Source: a virus
Taxonomy: Duplodnaviria; Caudoviricetes
Length of the DNA: 56,040 nucleotides
IMG/VR virus record: IMGVR_UViG_3300032269_000733
Location: 1 to 56,040 of that record
Reading direction: 5' to 3' (one strand)
Both the position numbers and the translations under genes were made by a program. The notes under the pieces were generated by a model that searched no databases, was not told the origin of the DNA, and worked only from the letters and a program-made list of their open reading frames with translations. Position 1 is the first letter of the stretch; the number at the start of each line of letters is the position of its first letter. Shown here in pieces: positions 6,382-53,269 of the stretch.

Positions 6382-8469
6382 ATGCCATTACAGAAGTTAC
6401 AGTTTAGACCCGGAATTAACCGAGAAGGTACTGATTACTCTAACGAAGGGGGATACTATGACTGTGACAAAATTAGATTTCGTTCAGGCTTTCCTGAAAA
6501 AATTGGTGGCTGGACTCAATATGCGTCTAATCAGTTTTTAGGTACTGCTCGTGCGCTTTGGACTTGGGTTGACTTGGCGGCTAATAACTATCTAGGTGTT
6601 GGAACAAGTTCCAAATATTATATTGAACAAGGTGGAATATACAACGACATAACTCCTATATACCAAACAGATACATTAACCAACCCGTTTACTACTGCGT
6701 ATAGCACTTTAAATGGTACGATTACTAGCACTGCAACTTCGATTACTTTAACTTCAGCCGCATCATTTCCTGTGAATGGTGTCATTAAAATTGATTCAGA
6801 ACAGATTGCATATACAACCATAGCGGGCAATGTCTTATCAGGGTTAACCCGTGGATACAATAGTACAACGGCAGCTAGTCATACGACAGGTGCGGCAGTA
6901 GGTAGTTCTTCTATGTTGGTTACAGACGCTACTTATCAACCCAGCGTTGGCGATTATATTTTATATTCAGGAGCTTCGGCAGTTAATGGAATTACAATTA
7001 GCGGACAGTATATTGTAACTAATGTACCCAACGGATCAAGTTCAACTTATTATATTTTAACCACAGATATTAATACAACAACCCCGGTTTTTTCAACTGC
7101 TTCCGCTAATGGTGGTAGTACTGTAACTGCTAAATATTTATATCCTACAGGAACAGATGTAAACGTTGTTGGTACAGGTTGGAGTACAGGGGCATGGAGT
7201 CGTGGTACGTGGAGTTCTGCTGGTCCCGGTATTGGGGTTACTACTACACTACGTCTTTGGTCTAATGACAACTATGGACAAGATTTATATATTGCACCTC
7301 GTGGCGGTGGTGTTTATGTGTGGCAAGATGCAAACGGTTTGGCTACAAGAGCAGTATTGTTATCTAGTTTAGCTGGTGCGTCTTCTGTGCCGTTAAAAAC
7401 TAATCAAGTATTAAGTGCCCCTATTCAACAGTTTATTATTTGTATGGGCGCTGATTCGTATACTGACGCTACACATACATTTAACCCTATGCTTGTTAGA
7501 TGGTCGGACCAAGCTAACCCTGTAAATTGGACACCTGCAGTAACTAATCAATCTGGTGAATTTGCATTAACAAACGGTTCTTATATTATGGGCGCTCGTG
7601 CAACCCGTCAAGAGATTTTAGTTTGGACAGATTCTGCTATATATTCCATGCAGTATTTAGGTGCGCCATATGTTTGGGGCTTTCAAATTTTGATGGATAA
7701 TATTACCATCATGTCACCCAACGCTATGATTACAGTTAATAACGTGACTTATTGGATGGGGCGTGATAAGTTCTATGTCTATTCAGGTACCGTACAAACC
7801 CTACCCTGTTCAGTCCGTCAATACGTCTTTGATGGTTTAAACATCAATCAAAACTTCCAAGTATTTTGCGGTTCTAATGAGGGCTATAACGAAGTTTGGT
7901 GGTTCTACTGTTCGGCTAATTCAAATACAATTGATAGTTATGTCATCTATAACTACCTAGACCAAGTGTGGTACTACGGTTCTATGGCACGTACAGCGTG
8001 GTTATCTTCTACAATTAAGATATATCCTATTGCGGCAGATTATAATAGTAGGCTCCTTAATCACGAAAATGGAGTAGATGATGTCTCTACAGGAACTACG
8101 TTGCCTATTGATGCTTATGTTCAGTCTTCCGATTTTGATATTGGTGATGGACACAATTTTGGATTTGTGTGGAGAATCCTGCCAGACGTAAACTTTAACG
8201 GTTCTTACGTTAATCAACCGTATTGTACAATGACCGTAAAACCTAGAGTTAACTCAGGAACTGCATATGGTCAAGCTGATAGTCCAACAGTACAAAGTGC
8301 CGACAATTATGGTGCATCAAGACTTTATAATATTCAGCAGTTTACAGGTCAGGTGTATACACGACTAAGAGGTCGTCAATTAGCGTTTAGGATTGAGTCC
8401 AATAGTGTTGGGGTAGCTTGGCAGTTAGGTAGTCCTCGTATAGATATCAGACCTGACGGAAGAAGATAA
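6382..8469 (+). CDS. Tail nozzle / DNA stabilisation protein (P22 gp10 / T7 gp12-like position)
   Basis: 695 aa beta-rich; VRWSDQ, DIRPDGRR end; precedes ejection genes. Confidence 0.72.
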   Translation: MPLQKLQFRPGINREGTDYSNEGGYYDCDKIRFRSGFPEKIGGWTQYASNQFLGTARALWTWVDLAANNYLGVGTSSKYYIEQGGIYNDITPIYQTDTLTNPFTTAYSTLNGTITSTATSITLTSAASFPVNGVIKIDSEQIAYTTIAGNVLSGLTRGYNSTTAASHTTGAAVGSSSMLVTDATYQPSVGDYILYSGASAVNGITISGQYIVTNVPNGSSSTYYILTTDINTTTPVFSTASANGGSTVTAKYLYPTGTDVNVVGTGWSTGAWSRGTWSSAGPGIGVTTTLRLWSNDNYGQDLYIAPRGGGVYVWQDANGLATRAVLLSSLAGASSVPLKTNQVLSAPIQQFIICMGADSYTDATHTFNPMLVRWSDQANPVNWTPAVTNQSGEFALTNGSYIMGARATRQEILVWTDSAIYSMQYLGAPYVWGFQILMDNITIMSPNAMITVNNVTYWMGRDKFYVYSGTVQTLPCSVRQYVFDGLNINQNFQVFCGSNEGYNEVWWFYCSANSNTIDSYVIYNYLDQVWYYGSMARTAWLSSTIKIYPIAADYNSRLLNHENGVDDVSTGTTLPIDAYVQSSDFDIGDGHNFGFVWRILPDVNFNGSYVNQPYCTMTVKPRVNSGTAYGQADSPTVQSADNYGASRLYNIQQFTGQVYTRLRGRQLAFRIESNSVGVAWQLGSPRIDIRPDGRR

Positions 8470-8762
8470 TGGTTACTCCGTTAAAAAATACTGCAATATT
8501 AGTACCAAAAGCACCAAATTTACCTGTTGCGCCTACGGAAATTACTCAGCAGTATCTTGAAAGATTAACCAATGCAATGCGTCTTTACTTTAACCAGATA
8601 GACAACTTTGCGCAAAGTATTAATATTCCTGATTCTGGGACAACCGCAAATAGACCGACAGTAGGGCTACAGGTTGGGCAGTTTTATTTTGATACAACGC
8701 TAGGGATTCCTATATGGTACAACGGAACAGTGTGGAAAAATGCTAGTGGAACTACCGTTTAA
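8469..8762 (+). CDS. Small virion protein
   Basis: APNLP.AP, RLYFNQID, GTTANRP...GQFYFDTTLG.PIWYNG motifs. Confidence 0.7.
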   Translation: MVTPLKNTAILVPKAPNLPVAPTEITQQYLERLTNAMRLYFNQIDNFAQSINIPDSGTTANRPTVGLQVGQFYFDTTLGIPIWYNGTVWKNASGTTV

Positions 8763-8796
8763 ATGTTATTATATGAGAAATTAAGAGAGGTGTAAT

Positions 8797-9903
8797 ATGG
8801 ATGCTGGAATCGGCGAAGCCGCTTTAATAAGTGCAGCTATTGGTGCAGGAACTGGTGCCGCTGGTTCCTCTTTGTCTGGTGGAGATCCACTAAAAGGCGC
8901 TTTACGTGGTGCTTTAATGGGTGGGGTTACAGGTGGAATTGGAGCAGGCATTGGCGGATTAGGAAGTGCTGCTAGTACTGCTGCTGAAGTTGCTCCAACT
9001 GTTGCAGAAGGAACTACCTTAGGAAGTGCGGGAGCTCAAGGACTAGATCAAGCATCCTTAGATTTTGTTAAAGCAAATCCTCAGTTGTATCCAACAGCTC
9101 CGAATGGGTCTTTAGCAACATCTGTTTCTATGACGCCTCCTACAACGCCTGATGTAAGCGGTATGCAACCAACAATAACTGCAAATAATCCAACAGCTCC
9201 TGCATCTAAAGGAATGTTTGATTTTGGCTATAAAGGCACATCACCCAACACTTTTGGTTATGGTCCACAAAGCAATTTAGGGTTGGCAGGAGTTGGTATT
9301 GGCTCAGGATTAACTGCGGCGATGCAAGCCGAAAGAGATAAGTATATGCCACCGGGCATGACTCCATATACAGGCATTCTAAGTAAGTATGACCCATATA
9401 GTGCAAGAGGTGTGCAATATCCTACACAATATGCAGAAGGCGGTATTACCTCATTAGCCATGGGTGGTCAACCTAATCAAATGTACCCCATGAGTCAGCA
9501 AGAACATACTAATTTTATGGATCCATCACAATTGCCTGCAAATGCTATGGAAGTTAGAAACTATGAACCTGCCACTAATCCAATGACAGGCAACATGACT
9601 AGACCTATGGCAGAGGGAGGCATTACATCTTTAGGTTCTTATTCAGACGGTGGAAGATTGCTTAGAGGTCCAGGCGATGGTATGAGCGATGATATTCCTG
9701 CAAGAATAGGAAAACATCAGCCTGCAAGATTAGCAGATGGTGAGTTTGTAATTCCTGCTGATGTAGTTAGTCATTTAGGTAATGGTTCTACTGACGCAGG
9801 TGCAAAGCATTTATACTCTATGATGAATAAAGTACGCAAAGCAAGGACAGGAAATCATAAACAAGGTAAACAAATTAATCCGAATAGGTATTTACCCGCA
9901 TAG
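8797..9903 (+). CDS. Putative internal virion / ejection protein
   Basis: Gly/Ala-rich hydrophobic N-terminus; AEGG repeats; GPGDGMSDDIPA...LADGEFVIPADVV C-terminal domain. Confidence 0.7.
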   Translation: MDAGIGEAALISAAIGAGTGAAGSSLSGGDPLKGALRGALMGGVTGGIGAGIGGLGSAASTAAEVAPTVAEGTTLGSAGAQGLDQASLDFVKANPQLYPTAPNGSLATSVSMTPPTTPDVSGMQPTITANNPTAPASKGMFDFGYKGTSPNTFGYGPQSNLGLAGVGIGSGLTAAMQAERDKYMPPGMTPYTGILSKYDPYSARGVQYPTQYAEGGITSLAMGGQPNQMYPMSQQEHTNFMDPSQLPANAMEVRNYEPATNPMTGNMTRPMAEGGITSLGSYSDGGRLLRGPGDGMSDDIPARIGKHQPARLADGEFVIPADVVSHLGNGSTDAGAKHLYSMMNKVRKARTGNHKQGKQINPNRYLPA

Positions 9904-9905
9904 GA

Positions 9906-10313
9906 ATGATTGTACAGTTAATACCAACAGAATATTGCGCTCAAAATTGGCATTTAGTTGAACCATACATTGTAGAAGCCCATAAATGGGGTCATGGCGA
10001 CTACAGTGTAGAACAGATAAAGATGTATGTAACATTAGGTCAATGGGTATTATTGGTGGCAATTGATGATAATAAAACAATACATGGAGCAGCAACTGTA
10101 TCTTTTATTAATTATCCTAACGATAGAATTGCTTTTGTAACTGCAATTGGTGGTAAATTAGTATCTAATCCTGACACGTTTAAACAGCTAACAGCTATTG
10201 TAAAAAACGCAGGAGCGACTAAAATACAAGGAGCAGCTAGAAAATCAATTGCCAGACTTTGGAGAAGATTTGGTTTTTATGAACGCCACGTGATAGTAGA
10301 GATAAGAATATGA
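9906..10313 (+). CDS. Virion assembly protein, possibly GNAT-like (P22 gp14 / T7 gp13-like position)
   Basis: 135 aa between nozzle and ejection genes; ARLWRRFGF resembles the GNAT terminal motif. Confidence 0.5.
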   Translation: MIVQLIPTEYCAQNWHLVEPYIVEAHKWGHGDYSVEQIKMYVTLGQWVLLVAIDDNKTIHGAATVSFINYPNDRIAFVTAIGGKLVSNPDTFKQLTAIVKNAGATKIQGAARKSIARLWRRFGFYERHVIVEIRI

Positions 10314-12031
10314 CTAAAATGATGATGAAATTATTGGGATTTTTATCTCCACAAATAGGTGGAGGTGGATCTGGTGGCGGTGGTGGTGGTGCGCCTAGTA
10401 ATCAAAACATTACTACATCTAATATTGCTCCTTGGGCACAAAAGGGTGTAGAGTCATTAATTCATTCAGGTATGCAAAATGTATACCCAAATATGCAAGT
10501 AAACAAAGATGAGCAAGGAAATGTTACATCTTATGATTTAGGTTCTCAATCTGGATATACACCTTTTAACGCTGGAGCTACAACGCCAGCTTCTCAACAA
10601 GCTTTAAGTGCTGCACAAAGCACAACGGCAGGATTTACTCCATTACAAAAACAAGCATTTACTGGCGCATCAAATTTACAAATGCCGGGACAATACGGTC
10701 AAGCAACTGATTTGGCATCTACTGCGGGAATGGGCGCTTTAGGTACTACTGAGCAAGCAGGTATGTACGGTGGTATGGGTGCAAGGGCTGGTCAACAAGC
10801 AGCTGATTTATCTAATTTGTATGGTGGTTTAGGTTCACAAGCGGGACAACAAGCTGCTGGCATTTCTAATTTATATGGTGGATTAGGCGCACAGTCTGGG
10901 CAACAATATGCTGGATTATCTGCTGGTGCCGGACAACAAGGTTCAGATATAGGTCAGCAATACGGTGGTCAATCGGCTATGTATGGCGGTATGGGTGCTA
11001 TGCAAGGTCAACAAGGCGCAAACATTGGGCAAAGTTTAGGGCAAATGTCTACTAATGCTGGTGCTCAACAAGCTTACATGAACCCGTATTTACAAAATGC
11101 TTTAAACCCGCAACTTGCTGAAATACAAAGACAGTATGATATTACTGGTACACAAGAGCAAAGCCAAGCAGCAAAACAAGGTGCATTTGGTGGAAGCCGT
11201 GAAGCGTTGATGGCTGCTGAAAATCAGCGTAATAAAAACATGGCAATGAACCAAGTAATCGGTCAAGGTTACAACCAAGCATTTACTAATGCCCAACAAC
11301 AAATGAACGCAGCTAATCAAGCTGCTTTATCAGGTAATGCTCAGGCTTTACAGGGCTACGGTATGGGGCTTCAAGGCGTAGGTCAAGCCGGTCAGTTAGG
11401 TATGCAGGGTACTGGACAAGCCCTTCAAGGTTATGGACAAGCAGGTTCACAAGCATTAGCTGGTTATGGTATGGGTTTACAAGGTGCAGGACAAGCTGGA
11501 CAGCAAGCTATGCAAGGTTATGGCATGGGGCTTCAAGGTGCTAGTCAAGCTGGACAACAAGGTATTGCTGGCGCTCAGGCAGGATTAGCAGGGGTCGGTG
11601 CTCAACAAGCTGGATACGGTCAAGCTGGACAAGCGGGCGCTAATTTAGCCAATATTGGTGGACAACAGTTACAAGCGCAACAAGGTATTCTAGGATTGCA
11701 AAATCAGATGGGAACTCAACAACAGGCTAATAAACAAGCCATGTTAGATAGAGCATCACAGATATATGCTCAACAACAGAATTATCCAATGATGCAGTTG
11801 GGTCAGTTAGAATCTTTATTTACAGGCGCTCCACAGAATGTAAGTCAATTAGGATATCAAGCACCTCCAAGTATGGTATCTCAATTAGCAGGCTTAGGAA
11901 CCGCAGGTTTAGGCGCTTATGGGATGTACAATGCTGCAACTAAACCATATAAAAAGGGTGGAGTTGTTAAGTATAGTGCAGGAGGTATTGTATCTCTTGG
12001 TTTAAACAAAGCAATGAGAGGTAACGCATGA
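10310..12031 (+). CDS. Gly/Gln-rich ejection (DNA transfer) protein
   Basis: Low-complexity G/Q/A repeats, YMNPY and GAFGGSR core, hydrophobic GLGTAGLGAY near C-terminus. Confidence 0.72.
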   Translation: MTKMMMKLLGFLSPQIGGGGSGGGGGGAPSNQNITTSNIAPWAQKGVESLIHSGMQNVYPNMQVNKDEQGNVTSYDLGSQSGYTPFNAGATTPASQQALSAAQSTTAGFTPLQKQAFTGASNLQMPGQYGQATDLASTAGMGALGTTEQAGMYGGMGARAGQQAADLSNLYGGLGSQAGQQAAGISNLYGGLGAQSGQQYAGLSAGAGQQGSDIGQQYGGQSAMYGGMGAMQGQQGANIGQSLGQMSTNAGAQQAYMNPYLQNALNPQLAEIQRQYDITGTQEQSQAAKQGAFGGSREALMAAENQRNKNMAMNQVIGQGYNQAFTNAQQQMNAANQAALSGNAQALQGYGMGLQGVGQAGQLGMQGTGQALQGYGQAGSQALAGYGMGLQGAGQAGQQAMQGYGMGLQGASQAGQQGIAGAQAGLAGVGAQQAGYGQAGQAGANLANIGGQQLQAQQGILGLQNQMGTQQQANKQAMLDRASQIYAQQQNYPMMQLGQLESLFTGAPQNVSQLGYQAPPSMVSQLAGLGTAGLGAYGMYNAATKPYKKGGVVKYSAGGIVSLGLNKAMRGNA

Positions 12032-14328
12032 ACGGAATACTTGGACTTCTTGCTGATGCAGAAAAGCTAACCCCCGATCAACGAGCACAATCTGTTAAAA
12101 ATGGTGTATTACCTCCTGATTTGGCAAATATGCTTGGAATGGCTGAAAAAGATTTAAATCAAACACAGCCTAAACCACAAGAAGGTCAATCAAGCATTAG
12201 CGATCAGGTTATGGGTCAAGTAGACAAAGCTTTAGATCCGAGGAATGAAATTTTAGAAAAAATTGATGTTCTTAAAGATGATATTGGCAAAATTCAAGGT
12301 GCTATTCAATCAGGGGAAGTAAAACCATATGTTGGTTTACCTTTGCTTGCAAATAAGGTGGAAGAGTTAAATAAGCTTGAATCTATCATTAAACCACCAC
12401 AAATGCCTGAAAATTTGCAGCAACCGGTTAACGCAAATATGCAACCTGGCATGCAACCAGCACAAGAACCACAAAGTTTAAACGGTCAGCAAATGGATGC
12501 TCAAGGTTTAAACACCCTGCAATCTAACCTGCCACAGCAAATGGCTTATGGAGGCATTGTTAATCTTGCTTCAGGAAGTCATATTGATGCTGAAGACGAA
12601 GATGACGAGGATGAACAACGGGCGTTTGAACAACAAATGATGAATATGCCGATGGGTGAAGGCTTGGGTGCGGCTATCATGGGCGCTTCTAAGAAAAGTT
12701 CTCAGCCTGTAAATAAGGGTGTTGAGCAAGCAAGTAATCAAAATAATTCGTCTGTTACCAAAAAAATTGGTCAAACAGCAAAAGAGTTTTATCGCACCAT
12801 GTATAGTGACATTAAGTCAACCGCTGAAAAAATGGGTATATCAAACCCTGAGGCTATTGCTCACTTGGGCGCATCACAATCTGCTATTGAAACAGGTTAT
12901 GGAAAACATGCGCCAAACAATAATTTCTTTGGCATTAAAGGCGCAGGATCAAAGCAAGTAACTCAAGAGTACGTACCGGGAAAAGGTATGGTCACCATCA
13001 CGGATACATTTAGAGGGTATGAAAGTCCTCAAGAATCTATTAAAGATTACATTAATTTTTTACAAAAAAATAGCAGATACAAGCCTGTATTAGAAGCCAA
13101 GACCCCACAAGAAGCAATAATAGCTCAAAGTAAAACGGGCTATGCTACAGATCCAAAATATGGCTCTAAATTAAATTCTATTTATTCCTCAAACATGGCA
13201 GAGGGTGGAATTGTTGGCTTGGCTCATGGTGGAAAAATCAAGCATTTTTATACAGGCAATAAAATTGCTGACGAAGATATGCGTGAAATCAATGATATTG
13301 GAAGTCAATTAGATACAGCTAGAACTGCTGTTCAAGGGTTAGAGTCTTTTGGTTCAAGACAAAGACAACTTATACCAGACTATCAAACAAAATATGATGA
13401 TGCTTTAAAACAAAGACAAGCATTACAAAAAAAATATGAAACATTAATGTCTAAAACAGGCGTTGATAAACCTGCAATTGGTTATCAAACTAATTTAACA
13501 GGCACTACATTAACACCAACTGCTATTGGGCAGGCTATGGCTCCTAAAGAAATCTTAAAGACTCCTCCTGTGCCTACTACACCTACAAAACCTGTAACTG
13601 ATTTAAATAACCAAAACCCATATGACACAGAAGATTTTATTTATGGTCAACGCATGAGGGATATGGAAAATAACAAAGGTGATGAGTTGGCTCAAGCTGA
13701 AAAACCAAGATCATCGATGGATGATTTCTTAGATTACATTAAGAAATCCCGTGATGATATAAAAAGATCTCATGAAACAGACAAATACATGGGATTACTA
13801 ATGGCAGGACTTGGCACATTAGGAGGTACATCACAGTATGGTGCCGCAAATATTGGCAAAGGCGCAGGAATGGGCGTTCAACATTACGCTGATTTACAGA
13901 GACAACAAGCCGCTGAAAGAGCAAACTTAGACAAGTTACAGTTATACGGTAATCGTGCACAAATGACCGATGCTTTGTATCGTGAAATGCGTGAAACTCC
14001 TGATGAAAGAAAAGCTCGACTTGATAGATTAGTTGCCAAAGATAAACAAGAAGCAGAAGATCGTGGGTCAAATTTACAAGAAAAAACTTTGCTTCGTTAT
14101 GAAAGAGCAAAAGATGCTCGTGATAAAATGTTTGAAAATCATTTATTAAAAACTTATCCTTTAGCGGCTTATGGCGACAAAGATTCTTTGGCTAAAATAG
14201 CTAAAGAAAGAGAAGCATATGAAAAAAATCCTCAAACAATTTTTTACAATAAAAAATTATATGGTGATGATATTTTTAGTGGAATACCGAGCGCAGAAAG
14301 TGGATTTAAAATACTACCACCTAAATAA
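12028..14328 (+). CDS. Ejection protein with FlgJ/GH73 glucosaminidase (virion peptidoglycan hydrolase) domain
   Basis: QSAIETGYG, NNFFGIK, FRGYES, GYATDPKY motifs of GH73. Confidence 0.85.
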   Translation: MNGILGLLADAEKLTPDQRAQSVKNGVLPPDLANMLGMAEKDLNQTQPKPQEGQSSISDQVMGQVDKALDPRNEILEKIDVLKDDIGKIQGAIQSGEVKPYVGLPLLANKVEELNKLESIIKPPQMPENLQQPVNANMQPGMQPAQEPQSLNGQQMDAQGLNTLQSNLPQQMAYGGIVNLASGSHIDAEDEDDEDEQRAFEQQMMNMPMGEGLGAAIMGASKKSSQPVNKGVEQASNQNNSSVTKKIGQTAKEFYRTMYSDIKSTAEKMGISNPEAIAHLGASQSAIETGYGKHAPNNNFFGIKGAGSKQVTQEYVPGKGMVTITDTFRGYESPQESIKDYINFLQKNSRYKPVLEAKTPQEAIIAQSKTGYATDPKYGSKLNSIYSSNMAEGGIVGLAHGGKIKHFYTGNKIADEDMREINDIGSQLDTARTAVQGLESFGSRQRQLIPDYQTKYDDALKQRQALQKKYETLMSKTGVDKPAIGYQTNLTGTTLTPTAIGQAMAPKEILKTPPVPTTPTKPVTDLNNQNPYDTEDFIYGQRMRDMENNKGDELAQAEKPRSSMDDFLDYIKKSRDDIKRSHETDKYMGLLMAGLGTLGGTSQYGAANIGKGAGMGVQHYADLQRQQAAERANLDKLQLYGNRAQMTDALYREMRETPDERKARLDRLVAKDKQEAEDRGSNLQEKTLLRYERAKDARDKMFENHLLKTYPLAAYGDKDSLAKIAKEREAYEKNPQTIFYNKKLYGDDIFSGIPSAESGFKILPPK

Positions 14329-14333
14329 TAAAT

Positions 14334-17300
14334 ATGCCAATTCATGAAGTAGAAACCCCTGACGGAAGCATCATGAGAGTTGAGGCACCTGAAGGTGCTT
14401 CACAAGATGCTATTCTTGCTTTTGCTTCGCAAAATTATCAACCAAAAGAATTAAAAGAAAGTCCTGAATCAGGTGGTATTGCCGCTGCAAAAGCATCTGT
14501 ACGAGACATTATTGGTCAAGGTGCTCTTACTCTAGGCAGGGTTGGTTTAATGAACCCTGAAGAAGCACAGCTTCGATATGAAAAAGAAAAACAACGATCA
14601 GCAGAGATATTCAAACCCACGGAAGGAACTTTCTTCCAATCGCCACTAGCTAAGACTAGTGAATTACTTGGTGGTTCTTTGCCCTATATGGCGGCTCCTT
14701 TGGTCGGTGCTGCAGTGGCAAATCCTTTGGGCGCAGGTCTTATTGGCGCAGGCGCTGTATCCGCAGGACAGTTTGTCGGTTCAAACTTAGCACGTCAATT
14801 GGACGAAGGAAAAAAGGAAGGTAAAACTCTTGCTGATACTAGTCTGACATCCGCAGTAGCTGCATCCATCCCACAAGCGTTGCTTGATACCTACGCACTC
14901 AAAATGACTCCATTAATTCGTGGAGTCTTTGGTAAAGCAGGACAAGAGATTACCGAAAAAACCGCACAAGAAATTGCCAAGAAAGGTATTCTTGGAACCA
15001 TTACAGATGTAGGCTTAACCGCTAACCGAGAAGGTATTACTGAGGCAGGACAGCAAGTCTTGGAGCGTTTACAAGCTGGTTTAAACATTGCAGACGAAGA
15101 AGCTCGCAAAGAATATTTTGATAGTTATGTTGGTGGCGCTGTACTCGGTGGAGTCTTAGGCGCAGGTGGTCACTTTATAGAAAAGACCATGCAGAACAAG
15201 CCAGAGAATGAATATGATTCTTTGATGACTAGTCTGCGCACACATTTTGATACAGCATCTGACGTGCCTATGACTGATGTTGTTGGTAAAATTTCCGAAC
15301 TAACGGGCGAAAAAGACTTAAACAAAATACAAAACTTCCTTGGTGGCGCAGAACAGTTAGGGCATTTAGAAACAGTTCCAAACGAAGATAACACTTTATC
15401 CATCAAGTTTAAACAGCCTACACCAATTGAGCAGGCAGACGACTTACAGAAGAACGCCAATCCTGACATTTATAGACCTGAGGTGTTTGAAAGCCATGCC
15501 GAGTTATATAAAGCCATCGTTCCTAAGTTAAAGAAGTTTGGCTTAGAAAATGTCGGTGTTAAGATCATGGACAGTATTGAAAATGGTAGAGCTGATGGTT
15601 TATGGGCTAACAAGGTTATTCATTTAGCCATGGATTCACCCAATCCAATAGGTACTATGCGCCATGAGTCAGTTCATGCCTTAAGACAACTAGGTGGATT
15701 TAAACCAAATGAGTGGACAGTTTTAACCAATAAAGCTAAAGATGAGTGGGTAGATAAGTTCATTAAGAAGGCAGATTTGTATGACCAGTACAAAGACCAG
15801 TATGTTAAAGATAATGGTAATTTAACTGGCTTTGATGATTATATCCACGAAGAAGCGATTGCTGAAGCGTTTAAACACTTTGACCAAACCAAGCCACCAG
15901 CAGGACTAGTTGGCAACATCTATCAACGACTAAAACAATTTTTTGAAACGATCCGCAATGGATTTGAAGGCAATGGATTTAACACTGCCGATAGTATATT
16001 TAGGAGCCTAGACGAAGGTAAACGTGCTCCTGTACAATTAAAAAAAGGAGAAATAAATGAACAATCAAAATACAACCTTGCCCAATACGATGAAGAAGGA
16101 CGACCTGTACAAGCAACTCCAATCAATGGAGCCGAAGCAGGAGAATTTCCAAGACGAGGAGAGTTACTTGGAGGCGAGGGACGCATTCCGCAACCGAGCA
16201 GGGTTCTTGCTCCGACCCAAAGCCTAGATAATAATCCACCACCTGTTACCATACCAAGTCTTGGTCAGGTATCTTTTGGAGCACATCCTCAAGCAAGACA
16301 AGTAGCTCAAGAATATATGGCTAATAAGCCTTATTTTCCTGCTACATCTTATGTTAAGGTAGATCCTGAGCAAGCAAAACGTGTTGCGGATGCTTACGAA
16401 AACATGAAGGATGATCCAACTAATCCTCAGGTTAAAGCGTCATACGATGCAATGATTAAAGAAACTTTAGACCAATGGCAAGCCATTAAAAAAACAGGTT
16501 TAAAGGTAGAGTTTATGCAAGAAGGAATGGATGACCCTTATGCCGAGTCTCCACGACTTGCCATTCTTGATGCAGTTAACAACAATCACCTATGGGTATT
16601 CCCAACTGATTTTGGGTACGGTGAGGGCAATGTAATGGATGAGAAAAACAATCCATTATTAGCCTATACTGATGAAATTATTAGTGGCAAACGAGCAAGA
16701 GCAAATGATATCTTTCGTATTGTTCATGATTACTTTGGACACATTAAAGATGGTGTAGGATTTAGAGCAGATGGTGAAGAGAATGCGTGGCGTTCTCATG
16801 TTCAAATGTATTCACCACTAGCAAGAAATGCAATGACTATTGAGACTCGTGGACAAAATTCATGGGTTAATTTTGGACCGTATGCCGAATTTAATAAAAC
16901 CGCTAGTGCGGTGGATACTAAATACGCACCACAAAAAATTGGTTTGCTTCCTGAAGAATTTGTGTATAGTGGCTCACCTTTTGAAACAGACCACAACATA
17001 GGAGAAGAAGATGCAAAAAAATATAGCTTCAAAAACAAAGAATTACGACCCACGGAAAATGCCGTTCGACCTAGCGGTGGAGGCGGTGAAGGAATCTCTC
17101 TCAACCCAAGGCAAGCAAATGCGCAAACCTATGTCGGGCACCACTACAGCAAGGGTGAAAGGCAATATCTAGACGGTAGTAAGTATGGATCTCTAGATGG
17201 TATTGCAGGACAAGAGCAAAGACGTTTACAGTATTCCAACGATCCACGGATTAAAAAACGTGTATATTTCTACATTCCTCATTCAGAACTTGATGGTAAA

Positions 17301-40699: not shown

Positions 40700-41001
40700 C
40701 AAGGGTGCAAAAAAGACACGAAATACGGCTGACAGGTACTTTTTAACGGAAATTTTTCACTGGCTCACTGCATGAGCCTGACTGTTTAAACGTTGAGATA
40801 TTGCAGGGGGAAGATAGCGAAGCGAAACAGTTGAATCATGACGTAGAGAGATATAAAAGAATCATCAGGGTGTTAACAAGCAAACATGTGAGAGCCTTAC
40901 AACACAAGGAATAGAGAACGAATAGCGAACCTTGTTTACTTCACATGTTTAAACGATTAGCATTGAATCATTGATGCATAAACTGATGAGAGAGTAAAAC
41001 C

Positions 41002-42168: not shown

Positions 42169-42395
42169 CAGAGCGTCAGAAAATAGTCTTGGACTTTATT
42201 TCCATGTACATCAAGATGAAGGGTTTTCCACCGTCATATCAAGAGATTGCTATTGGTTTAAACCTGAGGAGTAAGAGTAATATCCATAGAATTATTCATT
42301 CCTTGCAAAAAAAAGGATTGCTTCACGTGAAACCTCACATGATTAGATCCCTGAAAGTAATTGATAAATCCGTGGATAAGATGGTTTCCTTGTGA
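42165..42395 (+). CDS. LexA-type winged-helix DNA-binding domain protein (no peptidase domain)
   Basis: TERQ..VLDFI...I...GFPPS..EIA..L...S.S.IH.....L.KKG. Confidence 0.88.
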   Translation: MTERQKIVLDFISMYIKMKGFPPSYQEIAIGLNLRSKSNIHRIIHSLQKKGLLHVKPHMIRSLKVIDKSVDKMVSL

Positions 42396-43906
42396 TAGAC
42401 AATTTACTCACGCAGGAGCAGTTAAAAGCCTACATGGATAGGCTAGTGTCTTTACCCAAAGACCATCCTGATGTGCCCAAGATAAGGATTGTCCTTGATG
42501 ATGACAATCAAAAAAGAGCAAGGCAGTACTTCCTGCCGTTTGTTAACAGGATGTGGCCCGGTTTTATCTTTGGTAAACACCATGCAATCATGGCAGAAGC
42601 GTTTGAACGGGTCGCCAAAGGCGAGCTCAAAAGACTAATTATCAACATGCCACCAAGGCATACTAAGTCCGAGTTTGCATCATTCATGTTTCCTGCATGG
42701 TTTCTAGGTAAATACCCTAATAAGAAGATTATTCAAACTGCCCACACATCGGAACTCGCAGTGAACTTTGGTAGGAAAGTCAGAAACTTAGTCAACACCT
42801 CGCAGTACCAAGACATCTTTGAAACCAAGCTATCAAGTGATTCCAAGGCGGCAGGACGATGGAATACTCACGCAGGAGGTGATTATTTTGCGATTGGTGT
42901 GGGTGGTGCAGTGACAGGTAAAGGTGCGGATGTATTGATTATTGATGATCCACATTCGGAACAAGAAGCCATGCAAGGTAATCCTGAGGTGTATGACAGA
43001 GTCTATGAATGGTTTTCTTCAGGTCCTCGTCAGCGTTTACAGCCAGGTGGTTCAATTATTGTAGTGATGACCCGTTGGTCAAAAAAGGATTTAACAGGAC
43101 AGATTATTGATAATTCCTTAAAAAGAGATGGCAGTAATGAGTGGGAAGTCATTCAATTGCCTGCTTTAATGCCCTCAGGAGTGCCACAATGGCCCCAATT
43201 TTGGAGTAAAGAAGAGCTTGATGCTATTAAAGCAGAACTCCCTGTTGGTAAATGGGAAGCACAATATCAACAGAATCCTACCTCAGAAGAAGGCGCTATT
43301 ATTAAACGGGAATATTGGAAGATATGGGAGCAAGAAAACCCACCGTTTTGTGATTATTTGATTCAGTCATGGGACACTGCCTTTGAAAAGAATAACAGGG
43401 CGGACTATTCTGTCTGTACAACATGGGGAATCTTCTACCATCCTGATGATAAAGGCATGGAACAAGCCAATATTATCTTGCTTGATTGTTTTAAGGGCAG
43501 ACTAGAATTCCCTGAACTCAAAGAAAAAGCATTTGAATTGTACAAAGAATGGAATCCTGATAGCTTGATTGTGGAAAAAAAGGCAGCAGGAGCTCCTCTT
43601 ATTTATGAAATGCGCAGAATGGGAATTCCTTTGCAGGAATATACACCAAGCAAAGGTAATGATAAAATAGCCCGTGTAAACGCTGTGTCTGATTTGTTTC
43701 GCTCAGGTTTTGTTTGGTGCCCTGACCTCAGGTGGGCAGAAGAGGTTGTAGAAGAATGTGCTAGTTTTCCAAATGGCGATCATGATGACATAGTAGACTC
43801 AACTAGTCAGGCTCTGTTAAGATTTAGGCAGGGTGGATTTATTCGTTTAAACAACGATGAACCTGATGAAGTTCAAGAGTTTAAACGCAAAGTGGCATAC
43901 TACTAA
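42392..43906 (+). CDS. terL: Terminase large subunit
   Basis: INMPPRHTKS, TGKGAD.LIIDDP, MTRW, QSWDTA, FPNGDHDD.VD. Confidence 0.96.
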   Translation: MIDNLLTQEQLKAYMDRLVSLPKDHPDVPKIRIVLDDDNQKRARQYFLPFVNRMWPGFIFGKHHAIMAEAFERVAKGELKRLIINMPPRHTKSEFASFMFPAWFLGKYPNKKIIQTAHTSELAVNFGRKVRNLVNTSQYQDIFETKLSSDSKAAGRWNTHAGGDYFAIGVGGAVTGKGADVLIIDDPHSEQEAMQGNPEVYDRVYEWFSSGPRQRLQPGGSIIVVMTRWSKKDLTGQIIDNSLKRDGSNEWEVIQLPALMPSGVPQWPQFWSKEELDAIKAELPVGKWEAQYQQNPTSEEGAIIKREYWKIWEQENPPFCDYLIQSWDTAFEKNNRADYSVCTTWGIFYHPDDKGMEQANIILLDCFKGRLEFPELKEKAFELYKEWNPDSLIVEKKAAGAPLIYEMRRMGIPLQEYTPSKGNDKIARVNAVSDLFRSGFVWCPDLRWAEEVVEECASFPNGDHDDIVDSTSQALLRFRQGGFIRLNNDEPDEVQEFKRKVAYY

Positions 43907-43915: not shown

Positions 43916-46441
43916 ATGGCAATCGAAAAATCTCTTTCTCAAGCACCAATGGGTATTGAAAGTTTATTGGATGAACCTGAAATTGAAATTGAAATTGATT
44001 TAGGCGATGAAAGTGGATTTGAAGAAGAGGTAGAAAGTCCTGCCATTAGTTTTGAAGGAAATCTTGCAGAAGAGATGGACGAGAGTCAACTGCAAATCAT
44101 TGCTCAGGAGTTATTGAGTGATTTTCAGGATGACTTAGATTCCCGTAAAGATTGGATGCAGACCTATGTGGATGGTCTTGAACTCCTTGGATTAAAGATT
44201 GAAGAGAGAAGTGAGCCTTGGGAAGGTGCTTGTGGAGTCTATCATCCAATCCTAGCAGAAGCACTTGTCAAGTTTCAAGCAGAGACGATGATGGCAACAT
44301 TTCCTGCTCAAGGTCCTGTAAGAACGCAAATTATTGGCAAAGAAACACCGCAGAAAAAAGAATCAGCATTGCGTGTCCAAGATGATATGAATTATCAACT
44401 TATGGATAGAATGCAGGAATACCGACCTGAACATGAAAGAATGTTATGGGGATTAGGTCTTTCAGGTAATGCGTTTAAGAAAGTGTACTTTGATCCACAC
44501 TTAAGACGGCAAGCATCTATTTACGTGCCAGCAGAAGACATTGTTGTGCCATATGGCGCAAGTAGTCTTGAAACTGCCGAGCGTGTTACCCATGTCATGC
44601 GTAAAACAGAAAATGATTTACGTAGACTCATGGTTGCAGGATTTTATCGAGATGTTGATTTAGATGAGCCTGCCAATGATTTAGATGAAGTAGAAAAGAA
44701 AATTGCAGAAAAACTAGGCTTTCGAGCAACAATGGATAGTCGTTACAAAGTCCTAGAAATGATGGTCGATTTAGACTTAGAAGGGTATGAAGATCTAGAT
44801 GAAGAAGGTAATCCAACGGGAATTAAATTACCGTACATTGTTACTATTGAAAAAGGTTCATCTACCATTCTAGCAATTCGTAGAAATTGGAAGGAAGAAG
44901 ATGAAAGCAATCAAAAACGTCAACACTTCGTTCATTATGGATATATACCGGGTTTTGGTTTTTATTGTTTTGGACTTATTCATATTCTTGGTGCTTATGC
45001 CAAGTCAGGTACTTCCATTACCCGCCAATTGGTTGATGCAGGAACACTATCTAATCTGCCAGGAGGGTTTAAAACTCGTGGTTTACGTGTTAAAGGAGAT
45101 GACACACCTATAGCGCCAGGAGAGTTTAGGGATGTAGATGTACCAAGCGGAGCCATCAAAGATAACATTTTACCGTTGCCATACAAAGAACCAAGTCAGG
45201 TCTTAGCGCAATTGCTTGACCGCATCATGGCAGAGGCAAGAGCTTTTGCTAGTGCAGGTGATTTAAAGATTTCAGACATGTCAAGCCAAGCGCCGGTAGG
45301 AACTACCATGGCTATCTTGGAACGTACCTTAAAGATGACATCTGCTATTCAAGCACGTATCTATTACTCCATGCAACAAGAATTCCAATTGCTCAAGGAA
45401 ATCATTGCTGAGAATTGTGAAGACTATGACTATGAACCTGAAGAAGGTAGTCGTTATGTCAAAAAAGAAGACTATGAATGTTGTGATGTAATTCCTGTTA
45501 GCGATCCAAATGCCGCTACCATGGCACAAAAAATTGTTAAATATCAAGCAGTTCTGCAATTAGCAAGTCAGGCACCACAGTTATATAACATGCCTTTATT
45601 GCACCGTGAAATGCTTGAGGTGATTGGCATGAAACATGCAAATAAGTTAATTCCATTAGATTCAGACCAAAAGCCAACCGACCCTGTTTCAGAAAATCAA
45701 AATGTATTGATGGGCAAACCGGTTAAAGCATTTGCTTATCAAAACCACCCCGCACATATTCAAGTGCACATGTCTGCGATGCAAGATCCTAAGATTATGA
45801 TGTTATTGCAAAATAATCCAATGGCTCCGCAACTGCAAGCATCTATGATGGCACACATCAATGAGCATTTAGGATTTGAATATCGAGTGCAAATTGAGCA
45901 ACAGCTAGGGTTTTCCCTACCGCCACAAATGGATGAGTCAGGCGAAGAACAGCACATGGATCCACAAGTGGAAGCACAGTTGGCTCCCATGTTGGCACAA
46001 GCCTCACAACGTTTATTGCAACAAAATCAATCAGAAATGCAACAACAACAGAATCAACAAAAAGCGCAAGACCCGTTGGTTCAGTTACAACAGCAAGAGA
46101 TGCAACTCAAGCAAGCAGAATTGCAATTAAAACAACAAACAAGCGCTGCCGAAATTCAAATGAAACAACAGCAAATTCAGATTGAACAGGCAAGAATTCA
46201 AGCGCAACATGATGCGGCAATCCAAACACAACAGATGATAGCTTCAAGTAAGAAAGAAAAAATGCAGGCAGATGCATCATCCAAATTAGCTGAAATTGAA
46301 CTCAAGAAGAGTGAAATGAAAATGGATGTTTTAAAAGAAGTTGCTAATTTACAACAAAAACGTAAATTAACAAAAGAAGAGTTGTTGCATGACAGCATGA
46401 AACATGCAGTGGCTGAAGAAAACAAAAGAAAAGGTGATTAA
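43916..46441 (+). CDS. Portal protein
   Basis: 841 aa directly after TerL; G.AFKKVYFD; Gln-rich C-terminal barrel-like coiled coil. Confidence 0.88.
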   Translation: MAIEKSLSQAPMGIESLLDEPEIEIEIDLGDESGFEEEVESPAISFEGNLAEEMDESQLQIIAQELLSDFQDDLDSRKDWMQTYVDGLELLGLKIEERSEPWEGACGVYHPILAEALVKFQAETMMATFPAQGPVRTQIIGKETPQKKESALRVQDDMNYQLMDRMQEYRPEHERMLWGLGLSGNAFKKVYFDPHLRRQASIYVPAEDIVVPYGASSLETAERVTHVMRKTENDLRRLMVAGFYRDVDLDEPANDLDEVEKKIAEKLGFRATMDSRYKVLEMMVDLDLEGYEDLDEEGNPTGIKLPYIVTIEKGSSTILAIRRNWKEEDESNQKRQHFVHYGYIPGFGFYCFGLIHILGAYAKSGTSITRQLVDAGTLSNLPGGFKTRGLRVKGDDTPIAPGEFRDVDVPSGAIKDNILPLPYKEPSQVLAQLLDRIMAEARAFASAGDLKISDMSSQAPVGTTMAILERTLKMTSAIQARIYYSMQQEFQLLKEIIAENCEDYDYEPEEGSRYVKKEDYECCDVIPVSDPNAATMAQKIVKYQAVLQLASQAPQLYNMPLLHREMLEVIGMKHANKLIPLDSDQKPTDPVSENQNVLMGKPVKAFAYQNHPAHIQVHMSAMQDPKIMMLLQNNPMAPQLQASMMAHINEHLGFEYRVQIEQQLGFSLPPQMDESGEEQHMDPQVEAQLAPMLAQASQRLLQQNQSEMQQQQNQQKAQDPLVQLQQQEMQLKQAELQLKQQTSAAEIQMKQQQIQIEQARIQAQHDAAIQTQQMIASSKKEKMQADASSKLAEIELKKSEMKMDVLKEVANLQQKRKLTKEELLHDSMKHAVAEENKRKGD

Positions 46442-46638: not shown

Positions 46639-46662
46639 CCGTTTAAACAACTTGGAGAAATA

Positions 46663-48516: not shown

Positions 48517-49365
48517 ATGGCTTATCCTATCGTTAGTGCGCCTTACGGCATTAAGCCCGTTAATTTGATTGGTGGTCAAGTATTTGCAGGGTCTACACGC
48601 AATTTGCCTATAGCCTACAACTACGGAACCGCTATCTATTACGGTGATCCTGTGCAGTTATCTGCTGGTTACGTTGTTATCGCCCCGGGCGGTGCATCTT
48701 TAACTGGCGCTTCATATCTCAAAGCTACCGTTGGTATCTTCTTGGGATGTTATTACACCAACCCAACTACTAAGCAACGTCAATATGCTCAGTACTATCC
48801 CGGCTCAGTATTAGCTGGCGATATCACTGCTATTGTTGCTGATGATCCAGATCAAGTGTTCCAAGTTGCAGTTACAAACTCAGCTTCTGGCACAACAATC
48901 TCTTCATTGCCACAAGGCATGGTTGGTTTAAACGTAGCTGGTAATACTTTAACTGGCTCTGCATCTACTGGTAACTCTTCTGCTGCTGTGATTGCTTCTG
49001 CAACTACAACTGCTATTGGTTCAGGTGGTGTATGGCGTGTATTACAGTTAGTTCCTGATACACAAATTAGTACTTCTTGTACTTATGTTTCTGGCGCTAC
49101 CACAACTTCATTGGTTGTTTCTGGTTTAACAGTAGGACAAGTAATTCCTATTGGTACAGATGTATTCCAATTAGTTAACGGTCAGTTACAGAGCATTGTT
49201 TCAGTAACAACAGCAGCATCAACCGTCACGACAACAGGCAGTACAACATTGACAGTTACAGCTTCATCCGTAACACCGTCAGCTAGTGCTACTCTTGTTT
49301 TAGTTCAAACCCCAGAAGTGCTCGTGAAATTCAATCAAGGTGTTCACGACTACTACTCAGCTTAA
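48517..49365 (+). CDS. Probable capsid decoration / cement protein
   Basis: APYG.KP, GIFLGC.Y, V.DDP; T/S-rich insert; directly before major capsid gene. Confidence 0.6.
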   Translation: MAYPIVSAPYGIKPVNLIGGQVFAGSTRNLPIAYNYGTAIYYGDPVQLSAGYVVIAPGGASLTGASYLKATVGIFLGCYYTNPTTKQRQYAQYYPGSVLAGDITAIVADDPDQVFQVAVTNSASGTTISSLPQGMVGLNVAGNTLTGSASTGNSSAAVIASATTTAIGSGGVWRVLQLVPDTQISTSCTYVSGATTTSLVVSGLTVGQVIPIGTDVFQLVNGQLQSIVSVTTAASTVTTTGSTTLTVTASSVTPSASATLVLVQTPEVLVKFNQGVHDYYSA

Positions 49366-51811: not shown

Positions 51812-52075
51812 ATGGATGATATTTTAAAATATGGCGTTTTTGGAGTTGCTAAACCACTAATAGATAAATTAACTGATTCAGGTCTTTCACAAGAACAAGT
51901 GGATCAACAAATAAAAGGTGCCTTGGAAAAACAAAAAGCTGACCAAGAAAAAAGTATGATGCAACAGCAGGGCATGGGACAGCCAAGAACAATGAAGAAA
52001 GGCGGGAAAGTATCTCGTTCTTCTGCTTCTAAACGTGCAGATGGATGTTGCACGAAAGGATTTACTCGTGCCTAG
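51812..52075 (+). CDS. Small protein with KKGG and ADG..KG.TR motifs
   Basis: MKKGGKV; SSASKRADGCCTKGFTRA. Confidence 0.65.
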   Translation: MDDILKYGVFGVAKPLIDKLTDSGLSQEQVDQQIKGALEKQKADQEKSMMQQQGMGQPRTMKKGGKVSRSSASKRADGCCTKGFTRA

Positions 52076-52598
52076 TACAAGTAAAAAACAACATAATTTT
52101 ATGGAAGCAATTGCTCATAATAAGGCTTTTGCTAAAAAAGTTGGCGTGCCACAATCGGTAGGTCAAGAATTTTCAAAAGCCGATAAAGGCAAAACTTTTA
52201 AAAGGGGTGGTGATACTATGAAGAAAAAATCAATGATGCCTATGGGCGGTAGAATGGCTAGAGATAATCAACCCCCTTCAGGCATGGGTGGTGGAATGCC
52301 TCAACCCGGAACTCCCGGAATGATGCGCAAGGGTGGCATGGCTAAAAAGATGAAAGAAGGCGGTAAAGCTGACATGGCTCAAGATAAAGCTATGATTAAA
52401 AAAGCTTTAAGAATGCACGATGCTCAAGAACATAAGGGTGGAAAAGGTACAGATCTATCTAATCTTAAAAAAGGTGGAATGGCTATGAAAAAAATGGCTG
52501 GTGGCGGTTTAGCTGCTAAACATAAATCTGCTGACGGTGTTGTGTCTAAGGGCAAAACCCGTGCAATGATGCCTAAAATGAAAGGTAGAACAATATGA
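52068..52598 (+). CDS. Lys/Met/Gly-rich basic protein
   Basis: GTG start PSTSKKQHNFM.A.AH; several xxGG repeats. Confidence 0.7.
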   Translation: MPSTSKKQHNFMEAIAHNKAFAKKVGVPQSVGQEFSKADKGKTFKRGGDTMKKKSMMPMGGRMARDNQPPSGMGGGMPQPGTPGMMRKGGMAKKMKEGGKADMAQDKAMIKKALRMHDAQEHKGGKGTDLSNLKKGGMAMKKMAGGGLAAKHKSADGVVSKGKTRAMMPKMKGRTI

Positions 52599-53269
52599 AA
52601 CGCAAGGTAAAAAGATTTGCCGAGGGCGATGAAGTAATTGATATGCGTTCTGATACAAGTATGCCTACAGGGATTGATGACTCTGTTCGTGCTCGTGCAA
52701 TGAAGTTTTTAGAAAAGGGAATGAAGGACGAGGAGCCTTCATCTTCTAAGCCAAGAGCTATGATAAAGAAGACAACAAAAAGTATTGTTGAGTCACCAAA
52801 ATCTAAATCATATTCTGAGCCTAAAGGATTTAGAGTTCCTGAGGCAGAACCGGGTTTAGAGGCAGTTCATCCTGAAGATTATTTACCGGGTAGTGGCATA
52901 TTAAAAGGATTGGCACGTGGTGCTTCTCGTTTAATAGAAAAACAAGCTATTCGTGAAGCAGAGAAAAAAGCTAAAGAACGTGCTGCTAAAGAAGCATCTA
53001 AAGAAGCAAAAGATAATGCAAGGAGAAGTGCTGAAGGATATAGTCCCGAAGAGGCAGTTAGAAAATTAGATGAGCCTGCAAGGGTTGCAAGAACTGAATC
53101 AAGTGGCGCTATGAGAAATACATTTAGACCTGAAGAAATTCGTGAAGGGTTTAAACGTGGCGGTAAAACATCATCGTTTAAACAAGGTGGTTCAGTAAAG
53201 CGTAGTTCTGCATCAAGTAGGGCTGATGGTTGTGCAACTAAAGGTCACACTCGTGGCAAAATTTGTTAA
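52595..53269 (+). CDS. Charged protein with xxGG and ADG..KG.TRG motifs
   Basis: FKRGG, FKQGGSV, SSASSRADGCATKGHTRG. Confidence 0.7.
   Translation: MKRKVKRFAEGDEVIDMRSDTSMPTGIDDSVRARAMKFLEKGMKDEEPSSSKPRAMIKKTTKSIVESPKSKSYSEPKGFRVPEAEPGLEAVHPEDYLPGSGILKGLARGASRLIEKQAIREAEKKAKERAAKEASKEAKDNARRSAEGYSPEEAVRKLDEPARVARTESSGAMRNTFRPEEIREGFKRGGKTSSFKQGGSVKRSSASSRADGCATKGHTRGKIC

Follow-up and report, generated by a model that had tools for sequence, protein, structure and literature searches.

Short DNA words that recur throughout a genome have been described in several systems, and here we compare with these the exact eight-base palindrome GTTTAAAC of the virus contig IMGVR_UViG_3300032269_000733 (Duplodnaviria; Caudoviricetes), a single linear record of 56,040 bases with a CheckV completeness of approximately 90%, which was analyzed over its whole length (hereafter referred to as the window). 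The precedent named in the original prediction, which had been made from the letters of this DNA alone, was the highly iterated palindrome HIP1 of cyanobacteria. As described in passages of Elhai 2015 (PMC4390886), HIP1 is, like GTTTAAAC, an exact palindromic octamer that is hugely over-represented genome-wide, inside genes too, and evolutionarily conserved; related lineages carry alternative words (alternate HIPs), as is the case here, one-base deviants concentrate at the first and last base, and wherever the word is frequent, a methyltransferase with specificity for it or for its core is found. The precedent holds for the form of the element, in that GTTTAAAC is an iterated palindromic octamer that dominates among the octamers of its genome, exceeds expectation in coding sequence and has end-biased deviants, but it fails for the link to methylation. 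HIP1 is chromosomal, GC-rich and accompanied by cognate methylases, whereas GTTTAAAC is phage-borne, consists of A and T in its core and tracks a phage gene module, and four near-complete genomes (G017 to G020) without a recognizable DNA methylase retain it.

The remaining described systems share other traits with GTTTAAAC. In cluster A mycobacteriophages (for example L5), the stoperators are asymmetric 13-14-mers found mainly in intergenic DNA, with an orientation that follows transcription. In both cases one short site recurs dozens of times in a phage genome and has a phage-encoded DNA-binding reader (here a candidate), but GTTTAAAC is a palindrome of 8 bp, 30 of its 43 copies fall within genes, and the window revealed no repressor or lysogeny module. 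DNA uptake and Chi sequences, which mark DNA as ‘self’ for a DNA-processing machine, are host chromosomal and non-palindromic, and Chi is orientation-dependent. They resemble GTTTAAAC as short exact words found approximately once per kb or few kb at positions that are free to vary, but GTTTAAAC belongs to a phage lineage and as an iterated word is absent from the co-circulating relative G002. Phage pac sites are local, that of phage P1 consisting of clustered hexamers near terS; GTTTAAAC also flanks terS, the gene of the small terminase subunit, and its candidate reader is encoded in the terminase operon, but 34 of the 43 copies lie elsewhere (outside 40.6–42.3 kb) and are not confined to the terS region. 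The likeness to LexA/SOS operators lies in the LexA_DNA_bind domain (PF01726) of the candidate reader and in a relative, L076, that pairs such a protein with a palindrome of operator size. The window protein differs from LexA in having only 76 amino acids without a dimerisation or peptidase domain, and the 8-bp site has no spacer and occurs in tens of copies, mostly in genes.

Exact matching found GTTTAAAC 43 times in the 56,040 bases, at precisely the 43 start positions that had been counted by eye in the original prediction and nowhere else in the window. Dinucleotide-preserving shuffles (n = 100) contained 2.07 copies on average (standard deviation 1.38, maximum 6) and none reached 43, in agreement with the earlier estimate of about 2 expected copies and an approximately 20-fold excess. 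Among all 8-mers of the record GTTTAAAC was the most frequent, and the next palindromic octamer had 12 copies. Markov expectations for orders 0–6 were 1.6, 1.9, 2.1, 3.9, 6.1, 12.4, and 25.3 copies, respectively, the high-order values being inflated by sub-words of the motif itself. One-base variants as a class were near background in the window (49 vs 39.8). In the 404 distinct sites from the window and its relatives, Y at position −1 and R at position +1 were found in approximately 75%; no longer extended motif was detected further out in these contexts, and the site spacing showed no helical periodicity over 121 distances of 10–150 bp.

The excess persisted under codon-aware null models, under which the original prediction had allowed that it might disappear. 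The 78 called open reading frames (ORFs), which cover 95.3% of the sequence, contain 30 of the copies; a synonymous-codon shuffle within genes (n = 500) yielded 3.99 ± 1.78 copies (maximum 10; approximately 7.5-fold excess) and a codon-order shuffle (n = 500) a mean of 1.55 (maximum 7). Sixteen coding copies are read as xGT-TTA-AAC ([G/R/S]-L-N) and 14 as xxG-TTT-AAA-Cxx (F-K-[Q/H/R]), and none of the 30 is in the stop frame. Motif-compatible peptide positions carried GTTTAAAC in 30 of 46 cases, compared to approximately 3.5 expected from codon usage, with 16 of 27 [C/R/S/G]-L-N positions (1.7 expected) and 14 of 19 x-F-K-[L/P/H/Q/R] positions (1.8 expected). The matching peptides themselves, G-L-N and F-K-Q/H/R, were mildly above composition (for example, FKH 4 vs 0.7). 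Between 7.8 and 43.9 kb, 27 of 34 compatible positions were used, and in the portal-to-tail-fibre part 3 of 12. The density was approximately 4.9 per kb in non-coding DNA (13 copies in ~2.6 kb) and 0.56 per kb in coding DNA (30 copies in ~53 kb). Copies are thus found wherever the sequence is free, be it in synonymous or near-synonymous codons, Shine-Dalgarno spacers, hairpin loops or non-coding DNA, and selection therefore appears to act on their number or density and not on their positions.

The abundance of GTTTAAAC is a lineage trait that is independent of the GC content. Among 85 relatives identified through the large terminase subunit TerL, 51 loci (39–56% GC) had GTTTAAAC as the first-listed palindromic octamer, alone or in a tie. 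In all 80 loci found via a zincin gene of the window it held the top rank, with 825 copies in a total of 871 kb. Near-complete relatives at 39–56% GC hold 25–47 copies, namely 40 in 62 kb (G001), 44 in 54 kb (G016), 47 in 58 kb (G017, which has a terminal repeat; 0.6 expected), 25 in 57 kb (G018, 92% complete), 29 in 60 kb (G019, 55.6% GC; 0.19 expected), and 25 in 56 kb (G020); G004 has 38 copies in 43 kb and G003 has 16 in 47 kb. Altogether, several hundred contigs contain 0.4–1 copy per kb, with the word remaining constant across phage GC contents of 35–56%, and some early regions reach 2.4–3.6 copies per kb. As these contigs are independent, the assembly or adaptor artefact considered in the original prediction can be dismissed.

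Individual sites are also conserved. Of 67 site-by-relative comparisons, which are not independent of each other and involve 14 relatives at approximately 70% nucleotide identity, 42 showed the window site intact at the orthologous position; other 8-mers in the same alignments were intact in 4–10% of cases, and in 20% in the closest relative. The positions nevertheless turn over, and copies in the TerL gene lie at four different positions in different relatives. The over-representation of GTTTAAAC is thus real, strong and evolutionarily maintained.

Comparison with the relative G002 (96% complete), which has 3 copies vs 2.2 expected, supports that the motif follows the early/terminase module of the phage and neither the shared structural module nor the host. 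G002 shares with the window TerL (71%), portal, head and tail genes, two structural proteins being 86% and 92% identical, but it contains neither the window’s early genes nor the winged-helix gene described below, and its terS region is different. The part of the window that is sparse in copies, from the portal to the tail fibres, includes the genes that are 86–92% identical to motif-free G002, and this region is likewise sparse in G001. We considered that it might represent a functional domain and rejected this notion: the first 20 kb of the G017 record, whose terL and portal genes lie at its far end, hold 13 copies. Given these copies and the similarity of the sparse region to motif-free phages, the region is better read as recently imported DNA that does not yet carry copies. 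Other repeated words occur in motif-free phages, such as the non-palindromic ACTTGGCGAC in G002 (L090-L093) and the non-palindromic CCACTCAAAC in L085, each with eight copies, which may be phage-specific promoters or operators.

Beyond the lineage of the window, few dense occurrences were seen among the matches listed. A scan of IMG/VR for two copies within 5–30 nucleotides yielded at least 118 stretches, and among the 79 loci tabulated the dense ones almost all belonged to the window’s lineage, with the exceptions of G011 and G015. G011 is a fragment with 23 copies in 25 kb, 19 of these in 7.6 kb of early genes. G015 (L219) is the complete genome of an unrelated phage with 11 copies in 48 kb and an N6_N4 methylase; three of its copies stand in direct tandem in intergenic DNA (1886–1909). 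The corresponding scan of metagenome contigs for close site pairs, which is biased towards clusters, yielded at least 119 stretches, and 28 of those listed have at least four copies. Many dispersed copies were seen, among the metagenome matches listed, in L243 (a fragment with 13 copies in 3.6 kb for which no homologue was found), L317 (a fragment with 14 copies in 5.9 kb, in which zincin alone of the window-family profiles matched), L235 (which shares only the zincin gene with the window), and L290 (window lineage), while in most other listed contigs with at least four copies these were clustered or arranged in tandem. In both L317 and G011, copies repeatedly fill the space from Shine-Dalgarno sequence to ATG or lie immediately ahead of the Shine-Dalgarno sequence. 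A TerL search of genome contigs retrieved five contigs of metagenome-assembled genomes, none with the motif. The 20.5-kb G012 (L222), which has terminal repeats, contains approximately 20 TGTTAAACA-like repeats at 13089–15303, some of which include GTTTAAAC; these were rejected as instances of the same motif, as they belong to this different repeat family.

GTTTAAAC is probably a recognition tag for a phage-encoded protein, and the leading but contested candidate for its reader is the predicted product of the gene at 42165–42395 on the plus strand. This protein of 76 amino acids consists of a LexA-type winged-helix domain alone (PF01726, E = 3.5e-16), and its stop codon overlaps the start of terL. 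In all motif-rich relatives of the window’s lineage whose locus covers this place, terL is immediately preceded by this gene, which was missing from motif-free relatives by BLAST; a later profile search detected divergent winged-helix copies in L076, L082, and L083. In Pfam and PHROG scans of the approximately 30 small early ORFs, many of which have no known family, the winged helix was the sole clear DNA-binding family.

A clade in which the word differs bears on this candidate. In the TerS tree, L047-49, L052, L056, L059, and L061 form a clade nested within the motif-rich radiation, and their winged-helix proteins have the recognition helix SNMHR..K instead of SNIHR..H. This clade has lost the palindrome: G021 contains 2 copies in 31.7 kb, compared to 13 in 35 kb in the comparable G024, and the complete G026 contains 2 in 64.8 kb. 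Its replacement words are GTTTAAAK and GTTTACAC forms. In G021, GTTTACAC/GTGTAAAC occurred 12 times (0.8 expected), ATTTAAAC 9 times (1.0 expected), and CTTTAAAC 7 times (1.3 expected), and the first 20 kb contained 23 matches to GTTTAMAB (4.2 expected) without strand bias, whereas the six internal-position variant classes except GTGTAAAC had 0–1 copies each. The clade is also enriched for GTTTAAAT/G, and G026 is dominated by GTTTAAAT (15 copies) and GTTTAAAG (8 copies). The remaining synonymous positions of the word showed no changes in the G021 and G026 comparisons. In our reading, this pattern of word counts reflects a move to a one-sided word and not random decay. End-position variants are enriched also in palindrome keepers with high GC (25 vs 3.4 expected in G017 and 11 vs 0.8 in G019), and the enrichment of one-sided variants in both groups therefore suggests that the functional unit is one-sided, approximately GTTTA followed by A or C and then A, with the palindrome offering this unit on both strands. 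L076 harbors, at 2330–9206, 13 copies of a different palindrome around GCATATGC (0.34 expected), which extends to approximately 16 bp and in several copies overlaps ATG start codons, and it encodes a divergent LexA_DNA_bind protein upstream of terL (30.1 bits).

Several observations weigh against the winged-helix protein as the reader. The recognition helix of G018 is clearly different (SRTTINGHVKRL), yet this genome has 25 copies at a density like that of G019 and G020, and the helices of the motif-rich L042 and the shifted clade differ in only two or three residues. No winged-helix homologue was found at E-values up to 10 in the motif-rich G011 or G015, and the winged-helix profile matched neither L243 nor L317, although G011, L243, and L317 are fragments. 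Furthermore, the early module is inherited as a block, and presence and absence thus cannot separate the winged-helix protein from the primase-helicase, the HNH protein, the zincin and further products of the module. Finally, 8 bp is short for a classical dimeric LexA-type operator.

Other proteins of the same gene set have to be weighed against this candidate. If the T7 gp4-like primase-helicase (31450–33132) started lagging-strand primers only at a long specific sequence, sites would be needed on both strands approximately once per kb, and a palindrome would serve both strands. The enzyme combines Toprim and DnaB-like helicase domains with a zinc ribbon (CxxC...CxxC), is encoded in all motif-rich relatives that cover the region (58–85% identity) and not in G002, and the ORF survey of the window found no DNA polymerase gene. 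The density of ~0.4–1 per kb, the exact-match behavior and the one-sided core unit fit priming, as does the lack of strand bias in the one-sided variants (13 plus-strand vs 10 minus-strand matches in L441). We nonetheless regard this explanation as unlikely. The word does not follow the primase gene and its type of zinc ribbon, as G026 lost the palindrome but keeps the primase (59% identity), the zinc ribbon of the shifted clade is nearly the same as in its motif-rich sister L042, and no homologue was found in G015, which is complete and has 11 copies, or in G011. In the window, GTTTAA hexamers that are not part of the palindrome occur at the expected level (62 vs 63 expected, after subtraction of the 86 within palindromes from the 148 on both strands), and known gp4-type primases recognize three to five bases. 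It is also rather improbable that the copies act like stoperators, as operators throughout the genome by which transcription is silenced or timed, with a small ribbon-helix-helix or other regulator, the 76-amino-acid HNH protein or an unrecognized early-module protein as the reader. Operators would fit the intergenic copies near gene starts in the window and its relatives (18 of the 24 distinct arrangements tabulated have one 12–120 nucleotides ahead of terS), and also the positions between or just before Shine-Dalgarno sequence and ATG in L317 and G011. A weak RHH_3 match (E = 0.011) in ORF 26923–27246 and the many small early ORFs without known family provide possible readers, which would also account for G018 and for the lineages without a winged-helix protein. 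However, 70% of the copies are inside genes, in early and late classes alike, the 404 contexts show no promoter-like flank conservation, and no candidate protein is common to all motif-rich lineages. TerS was rejected as a reader, as the proteins of motif-free L074 (43%) and L083 (45%) are as similar to the window TerS as are those of motif-rich phages (30–45%). The zincin is, besides a distant terL match, the sole window gene also found in the distant motif-rich G011, L317, and L235. Its AlphaFold2 model (pLDDT 90.9) gave weak Foldseek matches to abylysin, SPRTN, Wss1, and PprI-type metalloproteases (best E = 9e-3), which suggests a protease rather than a sequence reader; with this protease-like fold, and with L059 having the zincin without the motif, the zincin/Zn-ribbon protein was rejected as well.

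Explanations outside this set of readers fare worse. Under a HIP-like scenario the motif or its inner hexamer would be made or used by DNA methylation, by a phage or host methylase, and methyl-dependent repair or function would keep the word abundant. The window encodes a beta-class (N6_N4) amino-methyltransferase at 25300–26358 on the minus strand, whose nearest solved relatives are M.MboIIA and CcrM and which has homologues in G001, G004, G006, and G016. The concentration of one-base deviations at the first and last base is also as described for HIP1 in passages of PMC4390886. Methylation is, however, quite improbable as the explanation. G017 (100% complete, 47 copies), G018, G019, and G020, which together span 91–100% completeness and 25–47 copies, contain neither a methylase homologue nor a match to PF01555, PF02086, or PF00145 (positive controls matched), and the motif thus does not depend on a phage methylase; moreover, the density in methylase-bearing genomes does not exceed that of G017. 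Thus, of the binding or modification site system envisaged in the original prediction, the selected recognition site tied to phage genes was substantiated by module tracking, orthologous conservation and the sub-lineage shift, but the requirement for a methylase was not. A signal imposed by the host, with a host recombination-hotspot reader, DNA uptake system or nucleoid protein whose word is copied by the phages of one host group, would agree with the excess on at least three backbones that share few or no genes (the window’s lineage, the G011/L317/L235 type, and G015). Little probability attaches to it, as G002 is motif-free despite having recently exchanged structural genes in common with the window, and the same motif persists over phage GC contents of 35–56%. 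Among the metagenome matches listed, the contigs with dispersed copies were L243, the zincin-bearing L317 and L235, and L290 of the window lineage, and the others were mostly tandem or clustered. That the excess follows from codon or dipeptide usage, or from an artefact of assembly or adaptors, has practically no chance of being true. The compatible peptides G-L-N and F-K-Q/H/R are somewhat commoner than composition predicts, but the synonymous shuffle (4.0 vs 30 observed), the 13 non-coding copies and the excess in hundreds of independent contigs, which is absent from G002 with its similar composition, already refute this explanation, as do the counts in early-gene loci and near-complete genomes.

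According to our best reading, GTTTAAAC is due to neither host composition, codon usage nor drift of a methylase target. Tentatively, and at somewhat less than even odds, we favor a tag that is maintained by selection and read by a protein of the early/terminase gene set, with the winged-helix protein (42165–42395) as the lead reader. Tag sites would be spread over the genome and kept by selection on their density, a reader from the phage’s own early/terminase genes would recognize them, and the palindrome would present the one-sided unit on both strands at once. The winged-helix protein, which is translationally coupled to terL, might bind the sites late in infection, and the bound protein might mark phage DNA for the packaging machinery or exert global control. 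The consequence could accordingly be packaging or self-marking, global regulation, or priming. The more specific proposition that a monomeric winged-helix protein acting with the terminase reads tag density, and thereby lets packaging or another late step tell phage from host DNA, seems unlikely at present. If true, bacterial DNA uptake sequences would have a counterpart on the capsid side, with co-evolution of tag and reader between sub-lineages.

The copies are distributed over most of the window. None lies before position 7835, as the original prediction had stated for the first 7.8 kb. Positions 1–7834 contain seven one-sided GTTTAMAB matches, compared to approximately 2.5 expected by a rough estimate from the genome-wide non-palindromic rate. 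Single copies follow at 7835–7842 (ORF 6382–8469, G-L-N frame), 10178–10185 (ORF 9906–10313, F-K frame), and 12000–12007 (ORF 10310–12031, L-N frame), two start at 12476 and 12506 (12476–12513) in ORF 12028–14328, and seven start at 15079, 15407, 15869, 17330, 19715, 21263, and 22729 (15079–22736) in ORF 14334–23729. Further copies are located at 24045–24052 in the minus-strand ORF 23994–24209, at 25332–25339 within the methylase gene, at 27040–27047 in ORF 26923–27246, at 27717–27724 in ORF 27619–27816, at 28699–28706 in the Erf gene (28075–28737), and at 30370–30377 in the RusA gene (30245–30610). Two intergenic copies start at 30812 and 30875 (30812–30882), the former in a terminator-like hairpin (30807–30827). 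The copy at 32342–32349 in the primase-helicase gene has its position kept in 8 of 8 relatives that cover the gene. The copy at 33167–33174 is intergenic, and so is that at 33772–33779, which fills the spacer between AGGGA, a Shine-Dalgarno-like sequence, and the start codon (ATG) of ORF 33594–33770 on the minus strand; the placements in a terminator and between Shine-Dalgarno sequence and start codon that had been noted earlier are thus found in the sequence. Coding copies at 34209–34216 (ORF 34036–34362), 35752–35759 (CobT/VWA-like gene, 35408–36289), 36657–36664 (ORF 36219–37139), 37610–37617 (AAA_5/CbbQ-type ATPase gene, 37148–38572), and 39056–39063 (zincin/Zn-ribbon gene, 38591–39193) lead up to the terminase genes.

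There, three copies starting at 40626, 40784, and 40947 (40626–40954) occupy an 871-bp non-coding stretch upstream of terS, five starting at 41691, 41708, 41769, 41911, and 41968 (41691–41975) occupy the 306-bp gap after terS, and one (42256–42263) lies within the winged-helix gene, so that nine copies fall within 40626–42263, the cluster described in the original prediction. The non-coding density near terS (8 in ~1.2 kb) is only about twice that elsewhere (5 in ~1.5 kb). GTTTAAAC flanks terS in the window and in all 24 distinct site arrangements tabulated. Two copies are at the 3′ end of terL (43845 and 43879; 43845–43886), one is intergenic (46641–46648, 22 nucleotides before the ATG at 46663), one is in ORF 48517–49365 (48926–48933), and the last two, starting at 53149 and 53176 (53149–53183), are in ORF 52595–53269. 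Other repeated features occur in the same region. Three RAACGTTY palindromes lie within 80 bp (41884–41964) upstream of ORF57 and the winged-helix and terL genes and overlap a sigma-70-like promoter match (41922–41950). We rejected RAACGTTY as the true operator of the winged-helix protein: with 9 copies vs 3.7 expected it is somewhat frequent genome-wide, but it is absent from G003, G018, and G020. The gap after terS also contains C-runs and G-runs (41890–41905 and 41978–41983), which are present in several relatives too, and the palindrome CCCCGGGG recurs, as a single copy, in many related loci.

The gene content of the window starts with tail fibres (1–4563) and virion proteins (6382–14328), including an internal virion protein with a lysozyme-like domain (12028–14328), followed by an ORF of 3131 amino acids (14334–23729) that matches only PHROGs of unknown function and for which the PHROG scan reported no RNA polymerase family; all of these are on the plus strand. 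The minus strand encodes a Ref-like RecA-dependent nuclease of 96 amino acids (23710–24000; P1 Ref-like PF16786, E = 1.8e-10), which is kept in motif-rich relatives and L324, the methyltransferase, Erf, and a PD-(D/E)XK exonuclease (29310–30194). RusA, the HNH protein (31206–31436), and the primase-helicase are encoded on the plus strand. Between RusA and the HNH gene, just past the terminator-like hairpin, positions 30970–31087 of the plus strand are a full-length match to the Rfam family RF02932, ‘Betaproteobacteria-1 RNA’ (81.9 bits; gathering score 49.4), which hints at a betaproteobacterial host and a phage-borne small RNA. The CobT-like VWA protein, the AAA_5/CbbQ-type ATPase, and the HExxH zincin with its C-terminal zinc ribbon, all on the minus strand, form a conserved trio. 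The plus strand then encodes terS (41002–41688), the winged-helix protein, terL (42392–43906), and the portal (43916–46441). The nearest cultured phages are distant, with TerL identities of at most 58% to the seawater phage 023Pt_psg01 and HTVC023P-type pelagiphages. Term searches in the text of the pelagiphage paper PMC9599517 gave no passage on palindromes, LexA or methyltransferases, and a full-text literature search, with supplementary files outside its scope, found no published description of the phenomenon.

In practical terms, GTTTAAAC is a simple metagenome marker for this phage group and its recently exchanged modules, and it makes these genomes very often cut by an enzyme that is otherwise held to be a rare cutter. 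Short palindromes are usually said to be avoided in phage genomes. The lineage described here does the opposite, as several hundred contigs keep one octamer under a pressure sufficient to fix the choice among synonymous codons and even to make the corresponding dipeptides more frequent. It thus provides a natural system for studying how and why a genome-wide DNA word arises and persists, a question that is still open for HIP1, and the phage case has the advantages of small genomes, a sister lineage without the word, another with a shifted word, and a handful of testable readers.

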